DNA of 64,000 nt from a bacterium (GCA_030700025.1 JAUYKI010000010.1:16648-80647); one strand, 5' to 3'; shown: positions 45,999 through 63,998, counted from the first letter of the stretch. Translations and numbers: made by a program. Notes: a model not told the origin generated them from the sequence alone.

Positions 45999-46200
45999 TT
46001 TTATAGAATTTATTTTTCACTCTTAGAATCTCTTTTTAATAATTGGATTCAGCCTCAAACTAAGAGTGAAAAATAAGTTCTTTAAGAAAAGCAATATCTG
46101 TACCAATATTTTTTACTAAAAATTATTTTGGGGAAATATTGGTGCAGAGATTGCACAAACTTGTGTCCGCAAGGCCACAAAATACAGGAAGGAGATACAG

Positions 46201-47126: not shown

Positions 47127-48212
47127 CTACTTAGCGAATGGATTCTTCGCGTTCCTAACCTCAAAGTGAAGATGACACCCGGTTGGGCCGTGAACATTTC
47201 CGGTATTGCCGATATAACCAATGGAATCTCCCTTTAATACATAATCGCCCGGCGAAACAACATTTCTTTGATTGTGGGAATATTTCGTGAAAGTGCCATT
47301 GGAGTGCTCGATTAAAATATAATTTCCGTAACCATCGTTCCAGCCGTTATTGGAAACTGATTCTAAAATTAATCCTTCGGCCGCGGCATAAATCGGCGTT
47401 CCGCAAGCATTGGCAATGTCTACGGCATTATAATTGTGAAGACGGCCCCAATTCCAGCCGGTAGTCGGAATTGCGAAATAACCGGATAAGTCGGGCAAAC
47501 TCGCCAACGATGCCAGCCGGGAACTTTGAACCGGCTTAGCGTCCGGAATAATAATATTAGAACCAACCACCAATTCCTGCCGAGCGCTAAGATTCAGCTG
47601 TAAAATTCTTTGAACATCAATGGAATAAAGATTAGCGATGGATTCCAAAGTTTCACCGGCCTGCACTTGGTGCAACACTCCGGACACCGGTAAAATCATT
47701 ATTTCCTGCCCCGGCGATAATAAGCGCGCTTTTACGCTCGGATTCGCCCAAAAAATCGTATTTAAAGAAATGCCGAAATTCGCGGCAATTTTGGATAAAT
47801 TATCTCCTGATTGGACTTTATAAATCAACAATCCATCCCTCGTCGGCAAAACATTACTCAGCGGATTGCCCGAATTCAGCAAGGCGTCGCTATCCACGAT
47901 AATAAAATTAATTCCGCCCTCGCCGCTGAATGACCCGCTATCTATCGGGAAAAAACTTTCCACGCTGGCGGTATTGCCGACAACCAGAATATTTTCCGCG
48001 CCGAAAGCCAGCGAATAAAAGCGTTCGCTGTCTATGGGTTGCCGAGAGTAGAACAAAAGGAGTAGATTAGTAACAGACGCAACCAAAACTAAAACAACCG
48101 GCATAGCGGTTGTCAGATTCTCTCTAAACCAGGATAAAATTTTACCCAATTTATTTTTCAACCCTATCATTATAACAATGAGCCGTCCGAAACTCAATCC
48201 CACACATAACAA
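47127..48212 (-). CDS. LysM-domain M23-family peptidase
   Basis: two LysM repeats (YKVQSGDNLSKIA, HQVQAGETLESIA); C-terminal M23 motifs (HNQRNVVSPGDYV, GCHLHFEV). Confidence 0.8.
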   Translation of the reverse strand: MLCVGLSFGRLIVIMIGLKNKLGKILSWFRENLTTAMPVVLVLVASVTNLLLLFYSRQPIDSERFYSLAFGAENILVVGNTASVESFFPIDSGSFSGEGGINFIIVDSDALLNSGNPLSNVLPTRDGLLIYKVQSGDNLSKIAANFGISLNTIFWANPSVKARLLSPGQEIMILPVSGVLHQVQAGETLESIANLYSIDVQRILQLNLSARQELVVGSNIIIPDAKPVQSSRLASLASLPDLSGYFAIPTTGWNWGRLHNYNAVDIANACGTPIYAAAEGLILESVSNNGWNDGYGNYILIEHSNGTFTKYSHNQRNVVSPGDYVLKGDSIGYIGNTGNVHGPTGCHLHFEVRNAKNPFAK

Positions 48213-48310: not shown

Positions 48311-50110
48311 ATGGGTGGGATCAATCCATTAAATAATTTATCCGAACAGCAAAAAAAAGCTGTCCAGCATCCCGCCGGGCCGATTTTGATTGCCGCCGGC
48401 GCCGGATCCGGAAAAACCCACACCCTCACCAGCCGTTTGGCGCATTTATTAAAATCCGGGGTTCGGCCGGAAAATATTATTGCCATTACTTTTACCAATA
48501 AGGCGGCCAAAGAAATGCGGAGCCGGGTTAATGGTCAGGGGTCAATAGTTAATAGTCTGTTCATCGGGACCTTCCACTCGCTCGGCGTTCAAATTTTGAA
48601 AAATGAAGCTGGGCTGGTTAATCGAAGCCGGAATTTTACTATTTTTGACGAAGACGATTCCCAAAGCCTGCTCAAAAATATTTTGAAAGAGTTAAATCTT
48701 GCCAAAGAAAAATTCAATCCCATGAAAGTTTCCAACCGGATTTCCCAGATTAAAAATGAGGTTTTAGACGATGATGAATTAAAGCCAGAGAATAGTTATG
48801 AAAAAATTATTTTATCGGTTTACGCGAAATACGAAGAAGCGCTCAAACAATATAATGCTTTTGATTTTGACGATTTAATTGAAAAGGTGGTGCGGATTTT
48901 CCGGAATCATCCGGAGATTTTAGAAAAATACCAAAACCGCTGGCAGCAAATCTTGGTGGATGAGTATCAGGACGTTAACACCAGCCAATATCTTTTGATA
49001 AGAATGCTGGCGCAAAAACACCAAAATCTTTTTGTTATCGGCGACGACGCTCAAAGCATTTATTCTTTCCGCGGTTCCGATTTCCGCAATTTCCTGAATT
49101 TTGACACCGACTGGCCAACCGCCGCCGTAATTAAACTGGAAGAAAATTACCGCTCCACTAAAAATATCATAGCTTCGGCTTCGGCCCTGATTCAAAATAA
49201 TAAGCTGCAAAAGCCGAAAGGCCTTTGGACCCAGAATCAAGAAGGATCGCTAATCCGCGTCAGCGCTTACCAGAGTCCGGAGGAAGAAGCCTGGAGCATT
49301 GCCGAAAAAATTCGGGAATTGCTCAAGGCCGGAGAAAATATCAAAGATATCGCGATTCTTTACCGCACCAATGCCCAGTCCCGCGCCCTGGAACAGGCAA
49401 TGATCCAAAACCAAATTCCTTATGAAATTTTCGGGGGGTTAAAATTCTATGCCCGGAAAGAAATCAAGGACTTAATCGCCGGTTTGCGATACGCCACTAA
49501 CCCCAAAGACAGCCTAAGCGCGGAACGGATAGTGAAGAATTTCACCAAAACCCAAAGCAAAGCGCTACTGGAAGAACTCCCTCGATTAGCCGGAGAATTA
49601 TCCATAATTGAGCTATTAAATTATATTTTGACCAACACGAATTATTTTGAATACCTGGAGACCCACTTTAAAAATCCGGATGAACGGCGGGAAAACATTA
49701 AAGAATTGATTCATTTCGCTTCCGGATTTAAAAACGCCCAGGAATTTTTGGAACAAATCGCCTTGGTATCCAGCCTGGATGGCCGGCCCAAGCTGGAAGA
49801 AAATGCCGTTAAGTTTATGTCTATTCATTTAGCCAAGGGGCTGGAATTTAATAATATTTTTATTGCCGGCGCCAACGAAGGATTGTTGCCGCACGAAAGA
49901 TCGCTGGGCAACAATGACGACTTGGAAGAAGAACGGCGTTTAATGTATGTGGCCATGACCCGCGCCAAAAAAAATCTTTTTATCGGCTTTTATGATTTGC
50001 CGTCCCGTTTTTTAGGAGAATTGCCGCCGGAACTGATTGAATTCCAAAAGACCACCAGTTACGGAACCGAGAACCGAGATTGGGACGACGAGACAATTTA
50101 TCTGGAATAA
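48311..50110 (+). CDS. pcrA: UvrD/PcrA-family DNA helicase
   Basis: AGAGSGKTHTLTSR Walker A, DEYQDVN motif II, helicase motifs through VI; short 599-aa form. Confidence 0.85.
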   Translation: MGGINPLNNLSEQQKKAVQHPAGPILIAAGAGSGKTHTLTSRLAHLLKSGVRPENIIAITFTNKAAKEMRSRVNGQGSIVNSLFIGTFHSLGVQILKNEAGLVNRSRNFTIFDEDDSQSLLKNILKELNLAKEKFNPMKVSNRISQIKNEVLDDDELKPENSYEKIILSVYAKYEEALKQYNAFDFDDLIEKVVRIFRNHPEILEKYQNRWQQILVDEYQDVNTSQYLLIRMLAQKHQNLFVIGDDAQSIYSFRGSDFRNFLNFDTDWPTAAVIKLEENYRSTKNIIASASALIQNNKLQKPKGLWTQNQEGSLIRVSAYQSPEEEAWSIAEKIRELLKAGENIKDIAILYRTNAQSRALEQAMIQNQIPYEIFGGLKFYARKEIKDLIAGLRYATNPKDSLSAERIVKNFTKTQSKALLEELPRLAGELSIIELLNYILTNTNYFEYLETHFKNPDERRENIKELIHFASGFKNAQEFLEQIALVSSLDGRPKLEENAVKFMSIHLAKGLEFNNIFIAGANEGLLPHERSLGNNDDLEEERRLMYVAMTRAKKNLFIGFYDLPSRFLGELPPELIEFQKTTSYGTENRDWDDETIYLE

Positions 50111-50121
50111 AAGATATTCTT

Positions 50122-50940
50122 ATGCGGCAAAAACTTGGGCAACACTTTTTAATCAATAAATCCGCTATTCAAAAAATAGTGGCGGCTTTAAATTTACAGC
50201 CCAACGATACGGTTATTGAAATTGGCCCGGGCAAGGGCTCGCTGACTCTTCCTCTGATAAAAATCTGCCGAGAAATAAATTGCCAATTGATTGCGGTAGA
50301 AAAAGACCCCACGCTCGCCAAGGAACTTGGCGAGAATATCCAAATTACAAATCACAAATTACAAATTATTGAGGGCGATGCGCTTAAAGTTTTGTCCGGC
50401 ATCATTCCTAATTCCTTATTCAAAATTCAAAAATATAAAGTTGTCGGCAACATTCCTTATTACATCACGGGAAAATTACTGCGGGTTTTAAGCGAATTGG
50501 AAAACAAGCCGGAATTAACTATTCTCATGATCCAAAGAGAAGTGGCGGAGAGAGTTTGCGCCCAACAGCCGAAAATGAATTTACTTGCCGCCGCTGTCCA
50601 ATTTTGGGCCAATCCCGCTATGCTTTTTACTCTACAACCTAGCGACTTTAGCCCCCCGCCCCAAGTGGAGTCGGCGGTGATAAAGCTGGCCTTACGGACC
50701 GCCGCCAATAGCTCCCAGCCCGATAACTATTACCGGCTAATTCGGGCTGTTTATAAACAACCCCGCAAAACCCTGTTCAATAACCTCCGATCCGGACTGG
50801 AGATAAGGGAAAATGAGCTTAAAACCGCCCTCAAAACCCTCAAAATTGACCCCGAAAGCCGGCCCCAAAATCTCTCCCTTGCCCAACTAGAGTTACTAAC
50901 TAATCTTCTATTTGTTTCTCTCGGAAAAAAAGAGTTATAA
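50122..50940 (+). CDS. rsmA: 16S rRNA (adenine1518/1519-N6)-dimethyltransferase
   Basis: LGQHFL start motif, VIEIGPGKGSLT SAM-binding motif, NIPYYIT motif. Confidence 0.85.
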   Translation: MRQKLGQHFLINKSAIQKIVAALNLQPNDTVIEIGPGKGSLTLPLIKICREINCQLIAVEKDPTLAKELGENIQITNHKLQIIEGDALKVLSGIIPNSLFKIQKYKVVGNIPYYITGKLLRVLSELENKPELTILMIQREVAERVCAQQPKMNLLAAAVQFWANPAMLFTLQPSDFSPPPQVESAVIKLALRTAANSSQPDNYYRLIRAVYKQPRKTLFNNLRSGLEIRENELKTALKTLKIDPESRPQNLSLAQLELLTNLLFVSLGKKEL

Positions 50941-50973: not shown

Positions 50974-51888
50974 ATGTTCCGTATTTTTCTCTCAACTGCA
51001 ATTATCAGCCTGGGGCTTGCCGGCGGTTTTTACTTTGTTACCAGCTATCATTTGCCAACTGCTCCCCAAAGCCAACCAACTGCTTTAACGCTTAACAACA
51101 ATCCTGTTTCCAACCAGCCATTAGTGGAACAGTTAATGCCCCCATCTTTAGAAAATTATTTGGCTGGCGGCTTGCTGGCAGAATCTTCTTGGACCGAAGG
51201 CGGCTTAGCCAGCGAAATTTCAGGGGACCTGGCCCAATTCTTAATTGAAAATAATCCGGAAGAGCCCGACGTTTCCGGCGGTAAACAATTTATCCAAGTT
51301 CCAACGGAGCAAGATGTCTTAAACAGTATCTTAGCTAAAAGTTCTGACAAATTAAATGATTTGCGGCCAATCATCAGCGATGCCGATTTAAATATTTCCG
51401 CTTCCGTTGCCAATGAAGATCTGAAAAATTACAGCAGCCGCGTAAAAAATCTTTTGGCCGGGTACCGCTCTGGATTAACTACTGCTTTCAACCAGCAACA
51501 GGCCGATATCGCCAAGCTTTACCAAGCCGATAGCGGCCAATTTTTAAATAATCTGGCCAGTCCCGAGAGCTCGATAAACAACCCCGAGGTTCAAAAACAA
51601 TATCTCGGCCTGATGTTTTTAAACTATAAATATTTTTCCAATTTAATACTACTTTTGAGCGGTTTAGAGGGTAAATTATATGCCGTTTCTGTTCCTCGGC
51701 CGGCAATAGAACTTCATAAAAATCTGCTTTCTTTAGTAATTGCCAGAAAAAATATCCTAACCGAAATCCAAACTCCGAAAACCAGGGATCCATTAACCAC
51801 GCTTTTGAACCAGCAAATGCTGCAAACTATTGATTCGGAATTTGCCCATTGGATGGAAGTTTTGCCTAATCTAAGCGCAGAATCTTAA
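50974..51888 (+). CDS. hypothetical membrane-anchored protein
   Basis: N-terminal TM/signal anchor; no motif. Confidence 0.45.
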   Translation: MFRIFLSTAIISLGLAGGFYFVTSYHLPTAPQSQPTALTLNNNPVSNQPLVEQLMPPSLENYLAGGLLAESSWTEGGLASEISGDLAQFLIENNPEEPDVSGGKQFIQVPTEQDVLNSILAKSSDKLNDLRPIISDADLNISASVANEDLKNYSSRVKNLLAGYRSGLTTAFNQQQADIAKLYQADSGQFLNNLASPESSINNPEVQKQYLGLMFLNYKYFSNLILLLSGLEGKLYAVSVPRPAIELHKNLLSLVIARKNILTEIQTPKTRDPLTTLLNQQMLQTIDSEFAHWMEVLPNLSAES

Positions 51889-51891
51889 ACT

Positions 51892-53067
51892 ATGGCGACT
51901 AAACTTAGTTCAAAAATTATTATAACGGTGTTAATCTTAGCCATTATTTTGACGCCTTTTAATCGGGGTTTGCAACTGCAAAAAACTAATGCCAGCTGGC
52001 TCTCGGAAGCCATTGATGCGTTGGATCCCACCAATGTAGAAATAAATTTTGATGCCGAAAAGTTTAAACAAGATTGTTATGCCGCTGGGGTTCCCCACGA
52101 CCAATGCGATCAGGCAGCGGCAGACCAGCAAGCGGCAGTGGACGAAGCTAACGCAGAAGACGATGGAGGGTTTTTAGATTTTCTAGATGCGCTTAGCATT
52201 GGTGAAGTAACCGTCGCCGCCTTAGGCGTATTTTATCTAGCCGTTTGTCTGCCCACCACCCAAGTCCCAGTAGCTACCGGCGTCGGAGCTGCGGGTATTG
52301 CTACCGCAGCCGGCACTGGCCTTGGCCCCGGTCCCGCGGCAGCCGTTCCTTTTATCACCAGCGTTTGCGATTCCATTAAAAAAGCGCTAAATCAAGCCTT
52401 TAAACAGCAAATTCTCCAAGCCCTAGTCAACGATATTACCGCTTGGATTAAAAGAGGATACAAAGGAAAAGTTATTGTTACCGATTGGAGGGAATTGGTA
52501 TCCAATGCCGGCCAAGCCGCGGTCGGTGAATTCGCCCAATCCATCGGCGCGGGATTTTTATGTTCACCATTTAATTTCCAAATCCAATTTTTGTTAACCG
52601 AGCATCCAGATTTTGATACTAAAGCAAGGTGCACTTTAGACGATATTGTCGGCAACATTGATAATTTTTATACCGATTTCCGGCAGGGCGGCTGGATTGC
52701 TTACCAGACATCCTGGGCTCCGCAGAATAATTTTTACGGCGCCACCTTGCTGGCTATCCGCGAAGCCAACCGAGTGCATGATGAAGCCGCCGATGCCGCC
52801 AAAAATGAAGGCATCGCCAACCAAGGATTCCTTTCTCAAAAAAATTGCGTAACTGTCGCGCTTCCCGGCGGCGGAACCAAAGAGCAATGCACCACAACCA
52901 ACCCCGGCAGTCTCATTGGCAATGCCGCCGCCGAAGTTTTGGTGAAAACCCCGATTGGAGCGGTTATTGGCGCGGATGAATTGGGCGGATACTTAAAAGT
53001 TATTATTGATACCGCCCTTAATGAACTAATTAAAAAGCAGGTTGATGACGTGAAACAAGGATTTTAG
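51892..53067 (+). CDS. hypothetical membrane-anchored Cys-containing protein
   Basis: N-terminal TM; Gly/Ala-rich linker; 4-nt spacing to the previous gene suggests an operon. Confidence 0.45.
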   Translation: MATKLSSKIIITVLILAIILTPFNRGLQLQKTNASWLSEAIDALDPTNVEINFDAEKFKQDCYAAGVPHDQCDQAAADQQAAVDEANAEDDGGFLDFLDALSIGEVTVAALGVFYLAVCLPTTQVPVATGVGAAGIATAAGTGLGPGPAAAVPFITSVCDSIKKALNQAFKQQILQALVNDITAWIKRGYKGKVIVTDWRELVSNAGQAAVGEFAQSIGAGFLCSPFNFQIQFLLTEHPDFDTKARCTLDDIVGNIDNFYTDFRQGGWIAYQTSWAPQNNFYGATLLAIREANRVHDEAADAAKNEGIANQGFLSQKNCVTVALPGGGTKEQCTTTNPGSLIGNAAAEVLVKTPIGAVIGADELGGYLKVIIDTALNELIKKQVDDVKQGF

Positions 53068-53073
53068 AAAATT

Positions 53074-54954
53074 ATGTTTAAGAATACTTATTTTAAAGTT
53101 TTACTTTTCGCGGTTCTGATTTTAATTATTTATTTCGGACAAACTCACACCGCGGAAGCGGCGTGGTGGAATCCTCTTTCTTGGATCGCTCCAGACCTTA
53201 ACACCGCCCTCGCGGGTTTACTAGGATTAGCCGGACAGGTAGCTGGAGCTTTCCTGGGCATAGCCGGAGCTTTGGCCAATTGGTCTCTTCAGTTCAACCA
53301 AAGCCTGCTCAGCAGCCCGCTGGTACAAAACGGCTGGCTGATTACCCGCGATTTAGCCAACCTGGGCTTTGTCCTCGCCATCATTGTTATTGCTTTTGCC
53401 ACTATTCTTCGGCTGGAAAGTTATGAAATGAAAAAAACTATTGGCCGTTTGATTATCGCGGCCTTACTCGTGAATTTCAGCTTGGTTATTGCCGGAGTGT
53501 TTTTGGATTTTTCCGCCATTTTAACCAACTTTTTTATTACCCGGGCGGGCGGAAATGATTTTGGCGCCGCCATTGCTTCCAGCTTTAAAGTAAATGCCCT
53601 ATTGCAAACCGAAGCCAGCGCCGCTCAAGCGGTAGCCCAAGATTTTGGAATTTTTATTATGGCTCTGGTGTTTATTACGGTTCTCACCATTGTGGCCGCA
53701 GTCGCTCTCTTGGCCCTGGCCGGAATGCTGATTACCCGGGCCTTAGCGCTGATGTTGCTTTTAATCACCGCGCCTCTTGCTTGGTTAGCCTGGGTCATTC
53801 CGGATTTTCAAAGCCACTGGAATGAGTGGTGGAATAAATTCTTTAAATGGGTTTGGTTCGCGCCAATGGCCGCTTTTTTCATTTATCTCGCGGTGGTTAT
53901 CGGACCGACGGCCGTTATTACGATGGATATTAAAAATGCCGGGGCTTTAACCTCGCTGATTAAAAATTTGGGCGCTGTTCTCGCGCAAATGATTACGGTG
54001 ATCGGAATCCTGCTGGGCGGATTAAAAGTTTCCTCGGACATGGGAAGTAAATTAGCCGGAGCCACTATTACCAAAGTTAATAGCTGGAAAGATAGAGCCG
54101 TGGCCGCTCCGGGAAAAACATTCCAAAGAGTTTTGCGCACCGGAGGTTATCAATCCGAACAGCGGGATGAGCGGGGCAATATCCTGAGGCCCGGAGGCAG
54201 CTCGCTTCAAAGAATCACTGCTAAGTTTACTGGCGTTCCGGTTGTCGGAGGAGCAGTCAGAGCAGTTAACCAATGGGCAGCGGCCGGAACCGAAGAACGA
54301 AAAACTAATTTGGATAAAGAGCTGGCCAGCATGGCTAAATCTGATCCGGTGGCATTTGCCAATGCCGGAAAATTGGGGGCCGGAAGCCGGATGAATGACC
54401 CGGTCTTTGCTTCTACATTCATGAAAGCCGCCACCGAAAATAACCGCGTTAAAGACCTTCAGCAATTAAACCCGGCCGGTTTAATCGCGGGCATGCAAAA
54501 AGTTCGCGAACAAAAAGGCGAAAAAGACCTGTATAAGAAAAATCCGCTCCTGGCTAAGCTCGGCCGGACTGATGATAACGGAAAAGTCTTGAAAGAATTT
54601 GAAGATGTTGTCAGCGCGGAAATGACCACCGCCATCAGCAAGATGGCGCCGAAAGACCTGGAAAATATTTCGCCGGAAGCTTTTGAAACTCCGGAAATTA
54701 TCTTTAATTTCACCCAGCCGCAATTTAAATTTTTATCCAACAACGCCAGCGGCGACCAATTAACCAAAATGACCGAGGCGCTGAATAAGTGGCAAGAATC
54801 CTACACCAGCGGTTCCGAAGAGTGGAAAGCTTTAGCCCGGGGAAATAAAGTAAGAGAAGACCAATTAACGCGCGGATTGGATAATTTAGATAAATTCCTG
54901 ACGGAAAATCCTTCCGCCCAAGTATTACAAGCGCAATTCCAAGCTACCGCTTAA
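53074..54954 (+). CDS. polytopic membrane protein, VirB6/TrbL-like putative T4SS channel component
   Basis: signal peptide then at least 6 TM helices, large C-terminal soluble domain; operon context with the VirB4 gene. Confidence 0.4.
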   Translation: MFKNTYFKVLLFAVLILIIYFGQTHTAEAAWWNPLSWIAPDLNTALAGLLGLAGQVAGAFLGIAGALANWSLQFNQSLLSSPLVQNGWLITRDLANLGFVLAIIVIAFATILRLESYEMKKTIGRLIIAALLVNFSLVIAGVFLDFSAILTNFFITRAGGNDFGAAIASSFKVNALLQTEASAAQAVAQDFGIFIMALVFITVLTIVAAVALLALAGMLITRALALMLLLITAPLAWLAWVIPDFQSHWNEWWNKFFKWVWFAPMAAFFIYLAVVIGPTAVITMDIKNAGALTSLIKNLGAVLAQMITVIGILLGGLKVSSDMGSKLAGATITKVNSWKDRAVAAPGKTFQRVLRTGGYQSEQRDERGNILRPGGSSLQRITAKFTGVPVVGGAVRAVNQWAAAGTEERKTNLDKELASMAKSDPVAFANAGKLGAGSRMNDPVFASTFMKAATENNRVKDLQQLNPAGLIAGMQKVREQKGEKDLYKKNPLLAKLGRTDDNGKVLKEFEDVVSAEMTTAISKMAPKDLENISPEAFETPEIIFNFTQPQFKFLSNNASGDQLTKMTEALNKWQESYTSGSEEWKALARGNKVREDQLTRGLDNLDKFLTENPSAQVLQAQFQATA

Positions 54955-54969
54955 ATAAATTAATAAACT

Positions 54970-55875
54970 ATGGCCGACATCATACAATTAAAACCATCTA
55001 TCGCCGATTCTTTTAAGGCCTTGCCCGAAAGCATTAAGGACTGGCTGGGTTCGGATTTAATCACTAATTATATTTCCGATATTAATAAGAAACTGGGAAT
55101 TAAAGGAAAAAAGCGCTCTATTATTCCCCGGCTAATAGTTCGATTAGTAACTAAGGATTTATTGCCGGCCGATTTTATCGGCGAACTGGCTAAAACATTA
55201 AATGCTCCGCCAGCCGCCGCTAAAGCAATTGCCCAGGAAATTTTTGATAAAACTCTTCAGCCGATTGAAATCGGGTTGCGCCGAGATATCGGTATAGATG
55301 TCAAAACTATTTTCTTTGGAAAGCCCAGGGAGGTTAAAGAGGGGGGATTAAACCCATTAGAAGCGATGGAATTAGATGCCGCTCCCGCGCCGTTAGCCTT
55401 TGAAGAAAAACCAGCCGAATTAAAACCAACTGTGCCCGTTAAAACAATCGTTGAAACTCCGACCTTTTCGCGGAGCGTTGAGAAAGAAACCTCCGCCAAC
55501 GGAGAAACTCCTATACTTATATATAAGGAAGGCACGGTCGGCCGGATTCCCATAGCCAAGCCGGAAATTACTCTTAAACCGAGAATGGTCCCGCCTTTGC
55601 CCTCCGAAGCCTTGCGCGAAGGAGGGTCCTTGCCTGCTAGTAGCCCTGCCTACCGGCAGGCAGGTTCACGCGAAGGCACGGCGCCATTACCCGCCCGCAA
55701 TCCATTAACACAAGCTTCTTCCCAGCCATCAACGGCCAATGAACCAAAGATCGCCCGAGTGGTTCATTACAGCGACTTCTTTACTCCGCTCAACAACTTT
55801 GGCCTGGATAAAAATCCCAAACAAACTGATTCCGCCTTCGTGGACGGCAATGTCGTTGATTTAAGATTTATTTAA
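54970..55875 (+). CDS. hypothetical protein (301 aa)
   Basis: no motif; Pro/Ala-rich middle. Confidence 0.45.
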   Translation: MADIIQLKPSIADSFKALPESIKDWLGSDLITNYISDINKKLGIKGKKRSIIPRLIVRLVTKDLLPADFIGELAKTLNAPPAAAKAIAQEIFDKTLQPIEIGLRRDIGIDVKTIFFGKPREVKEGGLNPLEAMELDAAPAPLAFEEKPAELKPTVPVKTIVETPTFSRSVEKETSANGETPILIYKEGTVGRIPIAKPEITLKPRMVPPLPSEALREGGSLPASSPAYRQAGSREGTAPLPARNPLTQASSQPSTANEPKIARVVHYSDFFTPLNNFGLDKNPKQTDSAFVDGNVVDLRFI

Positions 55876-56002
55876 AATAATAATGAGATACTAATATACC
55901 AATGCATGCGAATAATACTAATAAAATACGAATATGTAAAAATTAGTATATTATTCGTATAATTAGTACCATTCGTATATTGGCATCATTTAGTGTAAAC
56001 AT
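55876..56002. repeat. PR-family repeat R5 (rearranged, inverted-arm duplication)
   Basis: contains CCAATGCATGCGAATAATA (reverse complement of the R2 arm) and ATTCGTATATTGGCAT ending 8 nt... before the 56003 ATG (24 nt from TATATT). Confidence 0.6.
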
Positions 56003-56491
56003 ATGCAATTTCAAGTTCCACAATTTATAGAAACCGAGGATAAAATTATTGGTCCGCTGACTCTGAAGCAGTTTTTATATTTTGTAGCGGTGGGCGGAAT
56101 CAGTTTTATTTTATTTTTCTTTTTAAAAACCGTTATTTGGCTGATCCTTACTATTTTCATGGCAGTGTTCGCGGCCGCTTTGGCGTTTATAAAAATCAAC
56201 GGCCGGCCGCTTCCGAAAGTATTAATAGCGGCGTTATTTTTCTACATGAAACCGCGGTTATTCTTATGGCAAAGAGAAACTAAGCCGGCCGCGGAGGCCC
56301 CGGCAGAAGAAGGAACGGCCTTGGGGAATCTTTGGCAAAAACTGAATACCAGCACCGCGCCGATTTCCAAAAGAGAAAAAACTTTGTCTAGGCCGTCTAT
56401 GGTAACGCGCGCCAAAGGCAAGGAGGGATTTGAAACTCTGCGAAAGATTACCGGCGAAAAAGAAGAGGCCAAACGAGTAGATTTTAGATAG
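56003..56491 (+). CDS. two-TM small protein, VirB3/PrgI-like candidate
   Basis: two adjacent TM helices at the N-terminus then a charged tail; lies upstream of the VirB4-like gene. Confidence 0.35.
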   Translation: MQFQVPQFIETEDKIIGPLTLKQFLYFVAVGGISFILFFFLKTVIWLILTIFMAVFAAALAFIKINGRPLPKVLIAALFFYMKPRLFLWQRETKPAAEAPAEEGTALGNLWQKLNTSTAPISKREKTLSRPSMVTRAKGKEGFETLRKITGEKEEAKRVDFR

Positions 56492-56509
56492 CGTAATACC
56501 AATATACAA

Positions 56510-56920
56510 ATGCGTGCGAATAATACAAATACTAAATTAATTTATCCCGAGCTTTCTTATACAATCACTGGCATTTGCTTTGATACTCACAATACTATTG
56601 GCAGATATGGTCGGGAAAAACAATATTCGGATGAAATCGAAAAACGGCTTAAAGGAATAGCAATGCCTTATAAGAGAGAGTTTCCGATTGCTAATACCGG
56701 CAATATACTGGATTTTTTAATAGATAATAAAATTATTTTAGAATTGAAAACCAAAATAACCGTTGATCGCCAAGACTATTACCAAGTACAAAGGTACTTG
56801 CAAGCTTCAAATATAAAATTGGGTTTGTTGATAAATTTTCAAGCTAAATATCTTAAGCCATTAAGGATTGTCAGAATTGATACGGCGGCCAGAAGCAATT
56901 TTAATGATTTATTAGTATAA
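56510..56920 (+). CDS. AT-rich PD-(D/E)xK-like nuclease-fold protein (136 aa)
   Basis: [17 protein letters not shown] fits D...ExK; flanked by PR-family repeats R6 and R7; its ATG lies inside R6. Confidence 0.35.
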
Positions 56921-56960
56921 TTAGTATTATTAGTATGAATTAGTATATTAGCATTACATT

Positions 56961-59324
56961 ATGGCTAAACCAGGAACAACATCCACGCAACAATTCGTTG
57001 AAATTGAGTCTATTGCCAATGATATAGTCAAGTTAAAAAGCGGCGGCCTCCGTAAAATTTTGCTCGTCTCCGGAGTCAATTTTGATCTTAAGTCCGAAGA
57101 AGAACAGGGCCTGATTATTTACGCCTTTCAAGGGTTTTTAAACTCTTTGAGCTTTTCGGTTCAAGTTTTTATCCATTCCCGCAAATTAAACATTGAAGGC
57201 TATCTCCAAAAAATTGCTGAACGGGAAAGCCAAGAATCCAACGACTTATTAAAAAACCAGATAGCCGAGTATCGGGAATTCATCAAGACTTTTGTCAGCC
57301 AGAATGCCATCATGGATAAAACTTTTTTCATAACCGTTCCTTATGATCCTGTCGCTCTGCCTCAGTCCGGCGCCGGCGTTGCCGGAGCGCTAAGCGGGCT
57401 CTTTAAGAAAAAAACTGCGGCTGCCGAACCCGCTCCGGAAGACACCGAACAATTAAAAGCTAATCTAGAACAATTAAACCTCCGGGTAGATGAAGTAACG
57501 AACGGCTTAAATCAAATCGGCTTGCGGACTGTGCCGTTAAATAATGAGGAGTTGTTAGAATTGTTCTATAACATTTATAATCCGGCGTCCGTAGAAAAAC
57601 GAGGCTTGCCCGCCACCGCCGAAGAAGAAATTTCCGCGATTATTTCCCCGCCCGCCCTGGAAATTGATTCCAACTTCTTAAAATTAGGCGATAAGTTCGT
57701 TAAAACTCTTTTTGTTTTTTCCTATCCCCGTTATCTTTCCACCGGCTGGTTCTCCGGAGTAATTAATATGCCGGAACTTTTAGATGTTTCAATTTTCATC
57801 CATCCGGTAGAAACCGCGGCGGCTTTAAAAAATCTCCGGCGCAAAGCCGCCCAGGTGGAGTCCCAGCTGGCAGAACGCCAGCAAAAAGGAATGGTGCGCG
57901 ACCCTATGCTGGATACCGCTTTTCAAGATATTGAGAATTTAAGGGATTCTCTTCAACAAGCCCGGGAACAGCTTTTTAATGTCGGGGTTTATTTGACGCT
58001 CTATGCCAATAGCGCCGAAGAGTTAAAAAAGCTGGAGAGCAAAATAACTAATCTTCTGGAAAGCAGATTGATTTACGTCAAACCGGCGATTTTCCAGCAA
58101 TTGGAAGGCTTTAATTCTAATATTCCGATTAATTCCGACCGCCTGCTAATCCATTCACCGCTTAATTCCGGACCGCTTTCGTCCATCTTCCCATTCACCT
58201 CGGCCAACCTCACTTCAGATAACGGCATTATGTATGGCATTAACCGCCAGAATAACACCCTGGTTATTTTTGACCGGTTTTCTTTAGAAAATGCCAATAT
58301 GGTAATTTTTGCCAAATCCGGAAGCGGAAAAAGCTATTCCACCAAACTGGAAATTCTCCGGCTTCTTATGATGGGAATTGACGTCCTGGTCATTGATCCG
58401 GAAAACGAATACGAAAATCTGGCATCGGCTGTTGGAGGCAGTTTCTTTAAAATTTCACTGGCCTCCGAACACCATGTTAATCCTTTTGACATTCCACAGG
58501 TTCCGGAAGGAGAAGATCCAGCGGATGTCTTGCGGTCCCATATCGTCAATCTTGCCGGCCTTTTTAAGCTAATGCTGGGCCAAATCACTTCCGAAGAAGA
58601 CGCGATTTTGGACCGCGCTATTTCCGAAACTTTCGCTTCCCACGATATCGTGCCTGGAAAAGATTTCTCTACGGCAGTTCCTCCTTTATTGGAAGAGCTT
58701 CAAAAAATTCTGGAAAATATGGACGGGGGCCGGGGATTAGCGGAACGGCTTTATAAATTTACCAGCGGCAGCTATGCCGGATTTACTAATCAACAAACTA
58801 ATATTGATATTAAAAACCGTTTGATTGTTTTTTCTATCCGCGACTTGGAAGATCAGCTCCGCCCGATTGCCATGTATATCGTTCTTAACTTTATCTGGAA
58901 TCTGGTCAGGACCCAATTAAAAAAACGGGTGCTGATTATTGATGAGGCGTGGGTAATTATGAAATACGAGGACGGCGCTAATTTCTTGTTCGGATTAGTA
59001 AAGCGCTGCCGAAAATATTTCCTGGGCGTAACCACCATTACCCAAGACGTGGAAGACTTCCTGAAGTCGCCTTTTGGCCGCCCGATTATCACTAACTCTT
59101 CCATTCAACTTCTGCTGAAACAAGCGCCGGCTATGATTGATACTGTTCAAAAAGCTTTTGCCTTGACCGAAGGCGAAAAAGGACTGCTCTTAGCAGCCAA
59201 TGTCGGCGAAGGATTATTCTTTGCCGGATTAAACCATGTTTCCATCCAAATCATCGCTTCTTATCTGGAAGATAAAATCGTTACTACTAAACCGGAACAA
59301 ATTTTAGCCGGAAAAATAAAATAG
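56961..59324 (+). CDS. virB4: VirB4/TraC/TrbE-family conjugation ATPase
   Basis: 787 aa; Walker A FAKSGSGKSYSTK, Walker B LIIDEAWVIM; VirB4-like N-terminal domain. Confidence 0.85.
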   Translation: MAKPGTTSTQQFVEIESIANDIVKLKSGGLRKILLVSGVNFDLKSEEEQGLIIYAFQGFLNSLSFSVQVFIHSRKLNIEGYLQKIAERESQESNDLLKNQIAEYREFIKTFVSQNAIMDKTFFITVPYDPVALPQSGAGVAGALSGLFKKKTAAAEPAPEDTEQLKANLEQLNLRVDEVTNGLNQIGLRTVPLNNEELLELFYNIYNPASVEKRGLPATAEEEISAIISPPALEIDSNFLKLGDKFVKTLFVFSYPRYLSTGWFSGVINMPELLDVSIFIHPVETAAALKNLRRKAAQVESQLAERQQKGMVRDPMLDTAFQDIENLRDSLQQAREQLFNVGVYLTLYANSAEELKKLESKITNLLESRLIYVKPAIFQQLEGFNSNIPINSDRLLIHSPLNSGPLSSIFPFTSANLTSDNGIMYGINRQNNTLVIFDRFSLENANMVIFAKSGSGKSYSTKLEILRLLMMGIDVLVIDPENEYENLASAVGGSFFKISLASEHHVNPFDIPQVPEGEDPADVLRSHIVNLAGLFKLMLGQITSEEDAILDRAISETFASHDIVPGKDFSTAVPPLLEELQKILENMDGGRGLAERLYKFTSGSYAGFTNQQTNIDIKNRLIVFSIRDLEDQLRPIAMYIVLNFIWNLVRTQLKKRVLIIDEAWVIMKYEDGANFLFGLVKRCRKYFLGVTTITQDVEDFLKSPFGRPIITNSSIQLLLKQAPAMIDTVQKAFALTEGEKGLLLAANVGEGLFFAGLNHVSIQIIASYLEDKIVTTKPEQILAGKIK

Positions 59325-59333
59325 CCAAATACG

Positions 59334-59732
59334 ATGGAAAATAACGAAAGAAAAATTAGCACCGTGGAAGCAATTTTAGCCGTAATTTTTGTCGCTAGCG
59401 CGGATTTAATGGAGTTTTTAGCCAGCCTACTTGCCATTCCGATTCAGGTTATTCCGGTAGTCGGCCAAGGATTGGGCGCCGCATTAATGCTTTTTGCCTG
59501 GCTCTATGGCTTTACCGTAACCGCCCTAACCCTTACTTGGATTTATTTTAAGGGATTGAGTATGCGCTGGTTTTTGGGCGGCAGCGGCTTGGAGCTGATT
59601 CCAGGCATTAACGCGCTTCCTTTGCGCACCGCGGCTATTTTGGCGGTAATTGCCGAAGACCGGTTGCCACTGCTCAAAAAAGCTTCTGGTTTAGTTAAGC
59701 CAACAGCCAAATCAGCCGTAGCCACAAAATAA
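59334..59732 (+). CDS. small membrane protein (132 aa, 3-4 TM)
   Basis: 10 nt after the virB4 stop; hydrophobic. Confidence 0.45.
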   Translation: MENNERKISTVEAILAVIFVASADLMEFLASLLAIPIQVIPVVGQGLGAALMLFAWLYGFTVTALTLTWIYFKGLSMRWFLGGSGLELIPGINALPLRTAAILAVIAEDRLPLLKKASGLVKPTAKSAVATK

Positions 59733-59740
59733 AATCGGGT

Positions 59741-60493
59741 ATGAAATTACAAATCACAAATTATCCCGATTCTGCGGGAATCGAGGACTCTCGATTGCAA
59801 AGCAATCGGAGCAAATCACAAATCATTTCTCGAGGTGTTTTGTTTTTAATTATTGTTTTGATTTTTGGAAATTGGAGTTTAAGCGAAGCCCAGACCGCTC
59901 CGGAATTTATAATTTCCTGGCGGGCAATGAATTACGTTCCTTCCGGTTATCAGGGAAAAGCCTTGCCTATTAATTCAACGCCGATTGAAATCGGCTTGGA
60001 TATCGTAGAATCCGGGAAAATCGTTAGTTTAACTGCTAATGAAATCCGCTGGTTTTTCAACGGCGATTTATTGCGATCCGGCAACGGGCTAAAAACTATC
60101 CGGCTTAACAGCAAAAGCGCCAGCCAGCAAATCCGAGTCGTAGTCGCGAACTATAAAGGGGTGAATTTGGAAAAAATATTTATTATTCCAGCGCAAACTC
60201 CTAAACTGGTTATTGATACCCGCTTGCCTAATTCCAACGCCGGTTTAGGCAAATACCGTTTAGAGGCTCTGCCATATTTTTTCAACATCTTTTCGCTTCA
60301 AGAATTAAAGTTTGACTGGTCCGCTAATAATCAGCCGGTTAGCGGTGAAACAGGAGATCCGCAAATTTTGGATGTGGATTTCTCTTCTGAAAGCGCGCCG
60401 GCCGAAACTAATATCCGCATTTCTGCCATTGTTTCCAATCGTTTTAATCCGGTAGAATTAAGCAGTGGCGCAGTAGAATTAAATGTCCGATAA
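59741..60493 (+). CDS. hypothetical secreted/membrane-anchored protein
   Basis: N-terminal anchor (VLFLIIVLIFGNW); 1-nt gap to the next gene. Confidence 0.45.
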   Translation: MKLQITNYPDSAGIEDSRLQSNRSKSQIISRGVLFLIIVLIFGNWSLSEAQTAPEFIISWRAMNYVPSGYQGKALPINSTPIEIGLDIVESGKIVSLTANEIRWFFNGDLLRSGNGLKTIRLNSKSASQQIRVVVANYKGVNLEKIFIIPAQTPKLVIDTRLPNSNAGLGKYRLEALPYFFNIFSLQELKFDWSANNQPVSGETGDPQILDVDFSSESAPAETNIRISAIVSNRFNPVELSSGAVELNVR

Positions 60494-61219
60494 ATGCCTA
60501 AAAAAACATTTTTAACAATTTTCTTTTTACTAATAGCCGGTTCGGCATTTGCCGTCCAATTGTCCGTTCCGATTCCCTGTCAGAGCACTTCCCTGACTGG
60601 GCAATGCGCCGGCGGATCCGGAACCGATATTTCTGATCCCGCCACCTATGTTGCCAGGATTTACCAATTCGGCCTGTTGGCCGCCGGCGTTACCGCTTTA
60701 GGCGCTTTGGTTTTCGGCGCCACGAAATATATTCTCTCAGCCGGCAATGTCTTTGACCAAGGCGAAGCCAAAAACCAGATACTTAGCGCTATTTATGGCG
60801 TTCTTCTATTATTAGGCGCTTACTTGATTTTAAATACCATTAATCCGGATCTGGTGAGGCTGAAAAATCCTTCTTTAGGAGGAACTTTTAGGGCCCAAGG
60901 CGAATGCGTTACTACCAGTGGCCTTCCGGGGACATTCCAAAATGGCTCTTGCGTCGCTAGCGGGGAACGGACTGCCACTTCTGTTTGCCCGGCCGGACAG
61001 CATTTGGAAGTAAATAATATCGTAGGTAATAGCTGCGTGCCGGATTGCCCGGCCGGACAGCACTTGGTTGGCACTACTTGCCAGCCAATTCAGCCCTCGC
61101 AAGATCAGACCGGCGCGGGCGTTCCCGGCTCTACTGGACAGCCTTTAGGACCGGGGGGAATTCCTTGCCCGGGCGGAACAAATCCAGTGCAAGGCCCAAC
61201 GGGTTTAGAGTGCCGTTAA
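60494..61219 (+). CDS. pilin-like protein with Cys-rich repeat C-terminus (possible VirB2/TrbC-like)
   Basis: signal peptide, two hydrophobic segments (LLAAGVTALGALVFG, ILSAIYGVLLLLGAYLIL), then a duplicated CPAGQHL..C module. Confidence 0.35.
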   Translation: MPKKTFLTIFFLLIAGSAFAVQLSVPIPCQSTSLTGQCAGGSGTDISDPATYVARIYQFGLLAAGVTALGALVFGATKYILSAGNVFDQGEAKNQILSAIYGVLLLLGAYLILNTINPDLVRLKNPSLGGTFRAQGECVTTSGLPGTFQNGSCVASGERTATSVCPAGQHLEVNNIVGNSCVPDCPAGQHLVGTTCQPIQPSQDQTGAGVPGSTGQPLGPGGIPCPGGTNPVQGPTGLECR

Positions 61220-61244: not shown

Positions 61245-61363
61245 ATCCCGTTAGAGGCAACTAAACCTAAAATATTATGCCAATCAAAATTAAAAATATA
61301 AAAAGTCGGAAATATTTAATCGGCCTGCTACGGTCGCCTATGGCGACCTGCCTCTAACGGGAT
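61245..61363 (-). repeat. family A inverted-repeat (MITE-like) element E4
   Basis: ATCCCGTTAGAGGCAAC...CCTGCCTCTAACGGGAT; hairpin GGTCGCC-TAT-GGCGACC; interior homologous to E2; right inverted repeat contains the ATG of the 61362 gene. Confidence 0.65.
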
Positions 61364-62447
61364 GGACTGGAAACGAATTTTAAAAATATTTTTTGGAATT
61401 TTAACGCCCATTGCCGTAATTTGGGGGGGTTATTATATTTGGCAGACCCTGAACGCTCCGCCGGCCATTCCGGAACCTAACAATATTCCGACCCAAACCT
61501 TAGTGGATATTCCGACCACGCCATCTTTTTCTACGGTCATGGAAACCCCGATTTTTGATTATTGGATTAACTCTAAAACCGGAGCGGTTTATTATTTGGA
61601 TTTGTCCGGCCAGGTTTTTAAAGCCGGGGAATCCGACAAACCGGTTAATTCCCAAACCCTGAATAATCTGAACGGCATTCAAATTTCCGCGGACGGCACC
61701 TTGGCGCTGGCAAAATTTAATTATCCCGCGCTGGCGACCTTCAGTATTTTTAATACCGTTACCAATGCCTGGCAGCCGCTTCCGGAAGGAACTTCCGCCG
61801 CCGCCTGGGCCGCCAGCACTTCCCAGCTGGTTTATTTAGACGGCAAAGCCGGCAGTTTAAAAATTCTTAATGTTACCTCGCAAAAAACCCAGGAAGTAAT
61901 TAAATTAAATCAAAAAGACATAAAACTATATTGGGTTAATCCGTCAACGATTCTGGTCCAAATCTCCGCGCCATCCATAGAAATGCCGTCCTCCCTCTGG
62001 AGCTTAGATTTAAAAACCAAGCTGTTAAAGCCCCTATTCAGGGATGAGATCGGACTGGCCCTAAACTGGTCCCTGCTGGGAAATTACGGGCTGAAACTGG
62101 TTAATGTCAGCCGGGTTCCGCGAGTCTCATTGATTAATCAGGCCGGCGGTATTTTAAAAGACTTGTCTTTTGTTACTCTGCCGGAAAAATGCGCCTTTAG
62201 CGAAAGTAAAATTTATTGCGGAGTGCCTAGATTTATCCGCGACGGCATCCAACTACCCGATGATTATTATAAAAAAGCCGTCTATTTCCAAGACGACATT
62301 TATTCCATTGATTTAATATCCGGAGAATCTGCCTTATTGTTAAACGGAGACGAAATTTTAATTGATGCCTATCGCCTTTCTTTAGGCAACGGAAAATTGT
62401 ATTTCCTCAATCGCTACGATAACAAACTCTATAATTTGTCCTTATAA
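61362..62447 (+). CDS. hypothetical membrane-anchored protein (361 aa)
   Basis: N-terminal TM (ILKIFFGILTPIAVIWGGYYIW); beta-rich composition. Confidence 0.5.
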   Translation: MDWKRILKIFFGILTPIAVIWGGYYIWQTLNAPPAIPEPNNIPTQTLVDIPTTPSFSTVMETPIFDYWINSKTGAVYYLDLSGQVFKAGESDKPVNSQTLNNLNGIQISADGTLALAKFNYPALATFSIFNTVTNAWQPLPEGTSAAAWAASTSQLVYLDGKAGSLKILNVTSQKTQEVIKLNQKDIKLYWVNPSTILVQISAPSIEMPSSLWSLDLKTKLLKPLFRDEIGLALNWSLLGNYGLKLVNVSRVPRVSLINQAGGILKDLSFVTLPEKCAFSESKIYCGVPRFIRDGIQLPDDYYKKAVYFQDDIYSIDLISGESALLLNGDEILIDAYRLSLGNGKLYFLNRYDNKLYNLSL

Positions 62448-62873
62448 ACCGCTGGGAGAAACTATTACGTGGCGGTCTTTTCCTTCGCCGATGCTTTCGG
62501 TTTTAATATCCGGCCGGGAAGAAAGCTCTACGTGAATCAATCGCCGTTCATAAGCATTCATTGCCGGAAGGTCAATGTTTTGTTTATTTAACATTGCCTT
62601 GCGCGCCGCCGCTTTTGCCAGCTCAACGATCAATCGCTCCCTTTCCCGACGATAATTATTCACGTCTACTATCAAGCTCTCCATTTTCTTCTGCTTGGCG
62701 ATTAAATTTATCAAATGCTCCAAATCCCATATCAATCTTGGAAAGAAATCTTTTAAATCCATTTCGTAAATAAAAATAGAGGCTCTTTTTCCGTCCGGCT
62801 CAATTTCCACGGAAAAATCCTTAAATCCCGCTAAAGTAAAAATTTGTTGGATTGTTTCTTTAAGTTGTTCCAT
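62442..62873 (-). CDS. jag: Jag/SpoIIIJ-associated KH-R3H RNA-binding protein
   Basis: C-terminal R3H motif (YERRLIHVELS); overlaps the yidC-side gene by convention; ATG preceded by ATTCGTATATTAGTATTTC. Confidence 0.8.
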   Translation of the reverse strand: MEQLKETIQQIFTLAGFKDFSVEIEPDGKRASIFIYEMDLKDFFPRLIWDLEHLINLIAKQKKMESLIVDVNNYRRERERLIVELAKAAARKAMLNKQNIDLPAMNAYERRLIHVELSSRPDIKTESIGEGKDRHVIVSPSGL

Positions 62874-62992
62874 ACTTATGAAATACTAATATACGAATTC
62901 ATACTAATTATACTTATGAGATACTAATATACGAATTCATGCTAATGATACGAATATTGGTATGTGCCTATTCGTTAAGGCATTCGCATACT
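62874..62992. repeat. PR-family repeat R4
   Basis: TACTAAT/TACGAAT tandem units plus 36-bp core; core overlaps the yidC stop. Confidence 0.65.
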
Positions 62993-63638
62993 ATATTTTA
63001 ACTGTTTTATTAATGTAAATCTGCTGAATAATGGAGAAAACCGACGTCGCCAGCCAGTAAAGGCCGACAGCCGACGGCAGAGTAGTGAGGATAAATAGGG
63101 TGAAAACCGGGCCAAAATAGACCATATACCGCCCCATTTTCTCCGGCTGGGACAATTCCCTGCCTTTTACGGCAGGCGGCAAAGTCAGCACCCCTTGATA
63201 GTATTGAGCCAAAGCGGCTAAACCAACAATAAATATACTCTTAGTTTTCAGATTTATCAAGCCTAAAAATAAAGTGTTGATTCCCGAAAAATCTCCCGAC
63301 AAAATAACTTGGTAAAGAGCGATTAGAATCGGCAGTTGGATTAAGATTATCAAAAAACTGGAGAGGGGATTAACTTTATATTTTTTATAAAGCCCCATCA
63401 TTTCCTGGGCTTGTTTTTCTTTATTGTCCTTATGGTCATGCTGGATCTTTTGGATTTCCGGCTGGAGTTTTTGCAGAATCAGCTGGTTCTTCGCTCCTTT
63501 ATAAAAAAGCGGGAATAAAACCAGCCTTAATAAAAGAGTGAGTAAAATAATAGCGATGCCTAAATCGTGGAAGGCCCAGTTGTTGTAAAGAAAAATTACG
63601 AAATCGTAAATAGGATTATATAGGTAAGTTTTAAACAT
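62991..63638 (-). CDS. yidC: membrane protein insertase YidC (short form)
   Basis: 215 aa; 5 TM with conserved LxLLxRLxxxPL first-helix region. Confidence 0.85.
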   Translation of the reverse strand: MFKTYLYNPIYDFVIFLYNNWAFHDLGIAIILLTLLLRLVLFPLFYKGAKNQLILQKLQPEIQKIQHDHKDNKEKQAQEMMGLYKKYKVNPLSSFLIILIQLPILIALYQVILSGDFSGINTLFLGLINLKTKSIFIVGLAALAQYYQGVLTLPPAVKGRELSQPEKMGRYMVYFGPVFTLFILTTLPSAVGLYWLATSVFSIIQQIYINKTVKI

Positions 63639-63695
63639 AATACTATATTAATTTCTAATTCCTAATAGAATATCCAATGATTTTACTCTTAGGAA

Positions 63696-63998
63696 TTAAT
63701 AATTTTTAAATATTGCTTGAATTTCTTTTTTTAACTCTTCCGGGTTCAATGACGCGGCTTGGGGCGAGACAATAATTAAAAAATCTCTTTTATCATTGCT
63801 GCCATTTTTCACAAATTCCTTTAAGGAATTAAAAAGGGTTCTTTTAATTTTATTCCGAACTACCGCTCCTTTGGCTACTTTTTTACTGATTATAACGCCA
63901 ATCCGGTTAAACTCTAATTGATTGGGAAAAAATTTTAATAAAAAATAGCGGCTTCTTGCTGTTTGGCCGCTTTTTTTAACAACCGATTGGATTGGCAA
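63696..63998 (-). CDS. rnpA: RNase P protein component
   Basis: basic 100-aa ORF; RNR-like region (KIKRTLFNSLKEF) and conserved central segment; canonical position upstream of yidC. Confidence 0.75.
   Translation of the reverse strand: MPIQSVVKKSGQTARSRYFLLKFFPNQLEFNRIGVIISKKVAKGAVVRNKIKRTLFNSLKEFVKNGSNDKRDFLIIVSPQAASLNPEELKKEIQAIFKNY

Follow-up and report, generated by a model that had tools for sequence, protein, structure and literature searches.

In a 64,000-nt stretch of bacterial DNA (GCA_030700025.1, JAUYKI010000010.1:16648-80647; hereafter the window, with positions counted from its first letter), the region between 50974 and 62447 very probably represents a chromosomal, origin-proximal type IV secretion system (T4SS) of the kind typical of Patescibacteria, joined by a recently inserted cassette with a putative nuclease gene that is not part of the T4SS. 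The membrane translocon core appears from its profile matches to be of the monoderm, MPF-FATA-related type and comprises a putative VirB6/TrbL-like protein (g3), a PrgI/VirB3 protein (g5) and the VirB4 ATPase (g7), together with a VirB2-type pilin (g10). Around this core stand six envelope or accessory proteins that are conserved in the lineage (g1, g2, g4, g8, g9 and g11). The remaining gene, g6, encodes a putative PD-(D/E)XK protein of the GxxExxY family and is evidently carried as cargo by a mobile, selfish cassette, whose nuclease it may also be; the cassette is bounded by terminal inverted repeats (TIRs), with derivatives resembling miniature inverted-repeat transposable elements (MITEs). 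The T4SS cluster type is ordinary for the phylum and already published (PMC12102498; PMC12857230); novelty seems confined to the cassette family and its preference for the prgI-virB4 operon.

Counts of relatives below refer to a VirB4 scan with one genome per species, from which the best 80 loci were taken (L-numbered). The best VirB4 relatives among them, with identities reaching 83%, belong to Candidatus Harrisonbacteria and Paceibacterota. Judged by title or synteny, all 80 loci appear to come from Patescibacteria, with several labelled Gammaproteobacteria, Nanoarchaeia or Bathyarchaeia that we took as mislabelled metagenome-assembled genomes. The host of the window is evidently a Paceibacteria bacterium resembling Candidatus Harrisonbacteria. 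Its closest sampled relative is represented by two contigs, L207 and L208, with 76-86% nucleotide identity to the window.

Core genes and chromosomal position of the cluster

The earlier note on this DNA had described ten co-oriented genes at 50974-61219 separated by gaps of 1-10 nt. All ten open reading frames (ORFs) are present there on the plus strand (g1 to g10, Table 1), but the successive gaps actually measure 3, 6, 15, 127, 18, 40, 9, 8 and 0 nt. The end at 61219 was likewise set too early: an eleventh conserved gene, g11, carries the block to 62447, and a LysM-M23 peptidase gene upstream of g1 is also conserved. Profile searches upheld the identities proposed for the membrane proteins and VirB4, assigning them to T4SS families and moving none to an unrelated family. 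For PrgI and VirB4 the family cut-offs were passed directly. g7 combines a TrsD-like N-terminal domain (NCBIfam TrsD match at residues 5-121) with a P-loop C-terminal domain, shows Walker A (AKSGSGKS) and Walker B (VLIIDE) motifs, and has further Pfam matches to P-loop_TraG (2e-29), AAA_10 and CagE_TrbE_VirB; judged by these profiles, it is a VirB4 of the monoderm CD1110, MPF-FATA-related type. The g3 protein, with about 7 transmembrane (TM) segments and a 300-aa hydrophilic C-terminal region, has no direct Pfam match, and its VirB6/TrbL-like character is suggested by orthologues: 4 of 26 match Pfam TrbL/VirB6 (best 6e-6), and the closest one (L207) has a precomputed TrbL_3 match. The pilin assignment was strengthened in the same manner, with orthologues of g10 in L025 (34.6 bits) and L010 (28.6 bits) above the T4SS_pilin cut-off.

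In the window and in the closest relative (L208), as in a handful of further loci (L001, L011 and L017 among them), a single ORF encodes VirB4. The protein is divided in about 60 of the 80 relatives into an N part of ~215 aa (TrsD-like) and a C part of ~560 aa, at a point corresponding to query residues 216-228, and the two ORFs usually lie in different frames. Promoter and terminator scans of the cluster gave counts no higher than those in shuffled sequence. The best sigma-70-like match in the cluster, a consensus match only, is TTGTTA-18-TATAAT at 57552-57581 (10/12); it falls inside virB4, ~50 nt upstream of where the separate C-part ORF of the relatives begins.

The surroundings of the block are those of the chromosome. 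About 25 of the 80 loci share the order LysM-M23 peptidase, uvrD-like, ksgA, g1, g2, g3, g4, prgI, virB4, g8, g9, pilin, g11, jag, yidC. In the window, ksgA lies at 50080-50940 and jag, yidC and rnpA at 62442-63998, and an independent Logan contig of the same genome (SRR13727534, L085) places rnpA, dnaA and dnaN directly past yidC, so that the cluster lies ~3 kb from dnaA and the replication origin region. The base composition of the cluster, g6 excepted, equals that of the genome. As had been claimed from the sequence, the window shows no relaxase, type IV coupling protein (T4CP) or VirB11 among the 30 ORFs outside the cluster that were scanned against Pfam, a set that includes all ORFs of about 200 aa or more; these 30 are housekeeping genes or have no assigned family.

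A PD-(D/E)XK gene inserted between prgI and virB4

The note had further proposed that an AT-rich PD-(D/E)xK gene flanked by repeats interrupts the VirB3-VirB4 junction, and this description stood. The GC content of g6 is 0.319 vs 0.42-0.52 for its neighbours, it lies between 43-nt inverted repeats (56488-56530 and 56920-56962), and the corresponding site in L207 is empty; prgI adjoins virB4 save for this cassette. The predicted PD-(D/E)XK motif residues are E36, D68, E78 and K80, the last two forming E78-L-K80. g6 has no match in PADLOC, and its PHROGs match is to a family of unknown function only. In the literature on GxxExxY/PDDEXK_3 the function is listed as unknown, and we found incidental mentions only and no paper on mobility.

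The flanking repeats consist of ATACTAAT/ATTAGTAT octamers at 9-10-nt spacing, giving TIRs of about 40 nt, and the ATG and first codons of g6 lie inside the left end of the cassette. The window contains 20 copies of the octamer vs 1.6 expected, clustered in intergenic spacers. The boundary of the cassette is sharp: just past the ends the flanks are unrelated, as seen at the left end in 5 genomes and in gene-less copies. The same left and right ends bracket g6 homologues of 60-70% identity at quite different places, namely prgI/virB4 in L019, jag/g11 in L081, parA-like/parB in L082 and dnaB/recR in L083.

Comparison with the closest sampled relative provides filled and empty sites. The g4/prgI spacer measures 2 nt in L207/L208 vs 127 nt in the window, the prgI/virB4 spacer 36 vs 469 nt, and the jag/yidC spacer 36 vs about 130 nt. 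Three sites are thus empty in this relative, the cassette site and those of two gene-less copies. In the majority of orthologous clusters the prgI-virB4 spacer lacks a PD-(D/E)XK gene, and three have a PF05635 gene there. Given this distribution and the 36-nt spacer of the closest relative, g6 is evidently an insertion, acquired after divergence from that relative.

Gene-less copies and an insertion hot spot

The cassette ends occur five times in the window, the g6 cassette included (Table 1). L085 ends 26 nt past yidC, at the jag/yidC repeat element, which fits a multi-copy repeat breaking the assembly. To metagenomes we applied a scan with a 23-nt cassette end as pattern, which matched at least 120 stretches, from which 80 loci were kept for inspection. 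Short inverted end pairs 62-144 nt apart were present in 51 of these 80 metagenomic loci, and a GxxExxY gene lay between or beside the ends in 4, so that gene-less copies outnumber gene-bearing ones by ~10:1. Other GxxExxY genes among the VirB4 relatives (L009, L039 and L040) are flanked by different octamers in the same architecture. A distant GxxExxY gene (34% identity) on the Treponema saccharophilum plasmid pTS1 (L206, 1449-1909) is flanked by a 16-nt inverted repeat, 88% complementary; this one case hints that flanking inverted repeats are a property of the wider GxxExxY family.

Small genes of the cassette type, encoding either GxxExxY or PF05635 proteins, number 15 in the 80 VirB4 loci plus the window, and inverted periodic arrays enclose each gene whose flanks were inspected. 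A stretch of roughly 1.5 kb, which begins shortly before prgI and reaches as far as the start of the VirB4 C part, holds ten of these 15 genes, where ~1.5 would be expected from length alone (rough binomial p ~2e-7, under a null that ignores the number of permissive spacers). The junction of the two VirB4 ORFs is precisely where a GxxExxY gene stands in L039 and L040, and where L019 has a gene-less copy. The PF05635 genes, which encode four-helix-bundle proteins, sit in prgI/virB4 and uvrD/ksgA spacers (L002:2479-2844, L007:6788-7168, L044:9612-9956, L037:3574-3945 and L008:2560-2949); those of L002, L007 and L044 occupy the prgI-virB4 spacer, with inverted arrays of short periodic repeats in the flanks inspected. 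This hot spot is compatible with site preference, with tolerance or with a selected RNA-level role, and the data do not separate the three. In more distant Patescibacteria (L016, L029, L047 and L056), the spacers around prgI and virB4 are filled by other, unrelated palindromic or hairpin repeats, up to 1.2 kb in the case of L056.

The pilin-like protein and the accessory genes

The g10 protein consists of a signal peptide, a Cys pair and 2 TM helices ending in INPDL, followed by a 125-aa tail with 8 Cys. The CPAGQHL module is indeed duplicated at its C-terminus, as first noticed from the sequence: it occurs at residues 165 and 185, with DNA copies identical at 20/21 positions. A 15-residue internal duplication is present in the window and a single module in the closest relative L208, and the repeat is evidently a recent 15-residue duplication within a hypervariable Cys-rich tail. 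We read this tail as a hypervariable and presumably surface-exposed appendage: tails differ among relatives, and between the window and L208 the pilin domain is nearly identical and the tail divergent. The closest species-level relatives (L003, L004 and L007-L010) have two tandem T4SS_pilin domains per protein and EGF-like Cys-rich tails, and more distant orthologues have coiled-coil tails or large Cys-rich tails. In L020-L026 the pilin domain is fused to Cys-rich regions of 300-400 aa with a terminal H..D / HxH-like motif. A LAS-type metallopeptidase was considered for the C-terminal domain of these fusions and rejected, the resemblance being one of motif only and the Pfam and PDB sequence searches empty. 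Within the block, Cys is limited to exported proteins, with 8 residues in g2, 10 in g10 and 2 in g11.

The orthologues of g1 are weakly conserved (22-36% identity) and occupy the same position in 10 loci. g2 has a conserved core, GFLCSPF...CTL...GGWIAY...PQNNFYG; its AlphaFold2 model was unusable (mean confidence, pLDDT, 49), and its profile gave coiled-coil noise and one weak match only against PDB. No family match was obtained for g1, g2, g4, g8 and g9 in Pfam, NCBIfam, PADLOC or PHROGs, profiles of g3, g4 and g9 had no meaningful match against PDB sequences, and Pfam scans run on each orthologue of g2 and of g8 yielded nothing credible. For g11, the orthologues have Pfam PD40 and beta-propeller matches. 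An NTF2-like alpha+beta domain after an N-terminal TM helix, as in VirB8/PrgL/TcpC, was not found in the block. M23 and LysM domains have been reported in VirB1-type homologues (PMC12102498), and the LysM-M23 hydrolase upstream is a candidate for a VirB1-like role.

Table 1 Features of the T4SS region and copies of the cassette ends, in window positions
Feature	Coordinates	Strand	Evidence
LysM + peptidase M23 cell-wall hydrolase	47127-48212	-	Pfam Peptidase_M23 4e-26, LysM 5e-19; syntenic in most related loci
g1, N-terminal hydrophobic segment + 280-aa domain, conserved block member	50974-51888	+	Synteny
g2, secreted or membrane protein, 8 Cys	51892-53067	+	Alignment of 22 orthologues
g3, putative extended VirB6/TrbL-like polytopic membrane protein, 626 aa	53074-54954	+	7 hydrophobic segments; orthologue TrbL matches
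g4, no TM segments, conserved N-terminal domain, Pro-rich linker, conserved RVVHYS motif	54970-55875	+	Alignment
Gene-less palindromic copy, 97 nt, g4/prgI spacer	55889-55985	.	TIR matches; hairpin z-score -3.6; L207 spacer 2 nt
g5, PrgI/VirB3-like membrane protein	56003-56491	+	Pfam PrgI 1.3e-11, 45.3 bits vs cut-off 27
TIR-bounded cassette, 457 nt, carrying g6	56497-56953	+	TIR matches; L207 site empty
g6, putative PD-(D/E)XK gene, GxxExxY/PF13366, 136 aa	56510-56920	+	PDDEXK_3 66.7 bits vs 22; TIGR04256 GxxExxY 61.7 bits vs 35
g7, full-length unsplit VirB4 ATPase, 787 aa	56961-59324	+	NCBIfam conju_CD1110 400 bits vs cut-off 325
g8, small 4-TM membrane protein, conserved ELIP..N.LP..T motif	59334-59732	+	
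g9, N-terminal TM helix + two Ig/FN3-like beta-sandwich domains	59741-60493	+	
g10, VirB2-type T4SS pilin domain + Cys-rich tail	60494-61219	+	Pfam T4SS_pilin (PF18895) 24.5 bits vs cut-off 26.6
g11, membrane-anchored TolB/PD40-like beta-propeller, last conserved block gene	61362-62447	+	Profile vs PDB TolB 7e-9; synteny
Partial copy, 1.5 left-end copies + central hairpin, jag/yidC spacer	62884-62990	.	Repeat matches
Gene-less palindromic copy, outside cluster	11013-11111	.	TIR matches; hairpin fold
Gene-less palindromic copy, outside cluster	36506-36595	.	TIR matches; hairpin fold

Other features of the window

Genes for acyl-CoA dehydrogenase, isocitrate lyase and malate synthase (glyoxylate shunt) lie at 4578-9516 with a raised GC content of 0.50-0.53; one would not expect such genes in a Patescibacterium of reduced metabolism, and they may have been acquired from outside. 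At 45001-46000 the GC content reaches 0.626 vs 0.447 for the window, ORFs 45101-45871 and 46201-46992 have no Pfam match, and a long antisense ORF at 44966-45925 looks spurious. ARAGORN reported a tRNA-Ile with anticodon TAT (read UAU) at 28584-28658. A UAU anticodon is an uncommon route to AUA decoding in bacteria.

Discussion

Quinonero-Coronel et al. 2025 described a clade of VirB4 proteins from Patescibacteria that is related to MPF-FATA. Genes for PrgI, VirB6 and VirB2-like pilins (PF18895) lie close by and a relaxase hardly ever does, and in Paceibacteria ksgA, rnpA, rpmH, dnaA and dnaN are common neighbours (PMC12102498). The cluster in the window shares with these systems, and with that of Southlakia epibionticum as cited in the review PMC12857230, the MPF-FATA-related VirB4, the adjacent PrgI/VirB3, the nearby PF18895 pilin and putative VirB6-like protein, the lack of a relaxase nearby, the chromosomal site by ksgA, rnpA and dnaA, and an M23/LysM hydrolase in the vicinity. 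It matches the published relaxase-less Patescibacteria T4SS and therefore belongs to a known kind. It differs in that VirB4 is a single 787-aa ORF, whereas most relatives and many reported TrsD plus VirB4 pairs are split, in having one pilin gene with a Cys-rich tail instead of a pilin array, and in the GxxExxY cassette between prgI and virB4. Compared with the Gram-positive pCF10 and CTn2 systems (PrgH-PrgI-PrgJ; CD1110 VirB4), it has, with g3 as the putative VirB6, the same VirB6-VirB3-VirB4 order, passes the CD1110 cut-off and likewise has no outer-membrane core components. Unlike them, it lacks within the window a relaxase, a T4CP and a PrgK-type hydrolase, as well as any protein recognisable as PrgL/VirB8-like, it has a VirB2-type pilin, which the Gram-positive systems lack (PMC12857230), and it occupies a housekeeping chromosomal site rather than a plasmid or an integrative conjugative element.

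By analogy, we infer that the cluster would serve host interaction and not conjugation. Following the Saccharibacteria literature, VirB4 would dock on VirB3 and VirB6 and energise the assembly of a pilin-based surface structure or channel, which would be needed for an epibiotic or host-dependent lifestyle, not for conjugation. The exposed parts that contact a partner would be the Cys-rich tail of g10, the Ig-like g9 and the propeller g11. S. epibionticum cannot grow as an epibiont without the T4SS and its array of pilins (Wang et al. 2023, as cited in the review PMC12857230).

We weighed two other functions for the apparatus. A DNA-uptake machine like Helicobacter ComB or archaeal Ced, importing host DNA or nucleotides through a T4SS without relaxase or T4CP, is unlikely in our judgement. 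The VirB2/VirB3/VirB4/VirB6 set with neither a relaxase nor a T4CP nearby does resemble ComB-type systems, and Patescibacteria are unable to make nucleotides (PMC12857230); g7 also has NCBIfam matches to CedB and CedD, but these are weak, at 38 bits vs a cut-off of 700 and 25 bits vs 600, so that orthology to ComB or Ced was not found, and no DNA-binding component was recognised in the block. Moreover, the account of Southlakia in PMC12857230 has competence depending on comEC and type IV pili, not on the T4SS, which is essential although a comEC deletion is viable. It is hardly credible that the cluster forms the transfer module of an integrated conjugative element or is what decay has left of such an element. 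That g7 exceeds the cut-off of a conjugal-transfer ATPase family, CD1110, and that a tyrosine recombinase gene is present at 34404-35393 would suit this idea; the recombinase, however, is 16 kb distant among housekeeping genes, relaxase and T4CP are missing from the ORFs scanned, and the composition of the block, g6 aside, is that of the genome. In about 25 species, moreover, the block keeps one gene order and one setting, with ksgA on one side and jag-yidC-rnpA-dnaA on the other, which points to vertical inheritance and not to an island.

The cassette has two partial precedents. In 23S rRNA intervening sequences (IVSs), a PF05635 ORF lies between inverted repeats. The IVSs and the g6 cassette have in common a small ORF that is enclosed by inverted repeats and sits within transcribed DNA, but here the ORF is of the PD-(D/E)XK GxxExxY type, the site is an operon spacer in mRNA and not rRNA, and the ends are octamer arrays. 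With MITEs and their autonomous partners (REP/RAYT-type), the cassette shares TIRs, an excess of short gene-less copies, insertion into spacers and presence or absence between relatives; it differs in having no recognised transposase family, only a 136-aa PD-(D/E)XK ORF, and no detected target-site duplication.

We weighed two other readings of the cassette. In one, the PD-(D/E)XK protein would work together with the T4SS, perhaps as a nuclease acting on DNA substrates where a relaxase is missing, and its place beside VirB4 would be accounted for. GxxExxY genes do recur around prgI-virB4 (in the window, L019 and L039, and twice in L040), and with the PF05635 genes they make up the 10 of 15 in that 1.5-kb stretch; yet most orthologous clusters, that of the closest relative included, have no GxxExxY gene there, genes of the g6 type with the same ends stand at parA/parB, dnaB/recR and jag/g11 elsewhere, the base composition of g6 is foreign, and an unrelated four-helix-bundle family fills the same spacers in other relatives. 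We consider such a partnership very improbable. The inverted repeat arrays might instead be RNA-level or regulatory modules (RNase III stems as in the 23S rRNA IVSs, terminators or promoters) that spread or are kept through an effect on operon expression, a suggestion that deserves some weight although we think it rather doubtful. The gene-less copies fold as long hairpins and occur only in spacers of transcribed operons, genes for the PF05635 "23S rRNA intervening sequence protein" share the flanking architecture, and enrichment at one operon junction could reflect selection. Against it, presence or absence differs between close relatives at orthologous spacers, and the same 40-nt ends are found at unrelated loci in different genomes. 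From these two facts it follows that the sequences move, and a regulatory role would be secondary to mobility and not exclusive of it.

We therefore retain a T4SS typical of Patescibacteria with a mobile cassette inserted in it, while several points weigh against this reading. No target-site duplication was seen on comparing filled with empty sites, and the old 36-nt prgI/virB4 spacer was replaced rather than split. Cassettes of the same architecture carry the unrelated PF05635 family, which weakens a model of one nuclease for one type of end, and the GxxExxY protein is only a candidate for mobilising the cassette. On the side of the T4SS, g3 and g10 themselves stay under Pfam thresholds and owe their putative assignments to orthologues. 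The block shows no protein recognisable as VirB8-like or as a member of the VirB1 family, and the fold of g9 is a generic beta-sandwich. A relaxase or coupling protein could also lie elsewhere in the genome, our coverage being the 64 kb of the window and about 10 kb of further sequence.

As a tentative extension, one we hold to be possible but short of probable, the GxxExxY (PF13366) proteins, a large family, may be the nucleases of tiny TIR-bounded selfish cassettes whose gene-less derivatives populate Patescibacteria spacers. Together with PF05635 look-alikes, these cassettes may preferentially home to prgI-virB4 spacers, where they may supply stops, starts or RNA-processing stems and may be linked to the widespread splitting of VirB4 into a TrsD-like and a core ORF.

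As a T4SS, the cluster is one more example of a system for which about 2,500 Patescibacteria genomes have already been surveyed. What it offers is a clean, fully syntenic Paceibacteria reference locus, in which six of the eleven conserved genes have no assigned family. The fast-evolving, disulfide-rich tail of g10, varied among relatives, suggests where contact with the host may take place. For the uncharacterised GxxExxY family, g6 gives a testable context, as the cargo of what appears to be a mobile palindromic cassette for which filled and empty sites are both in hand.

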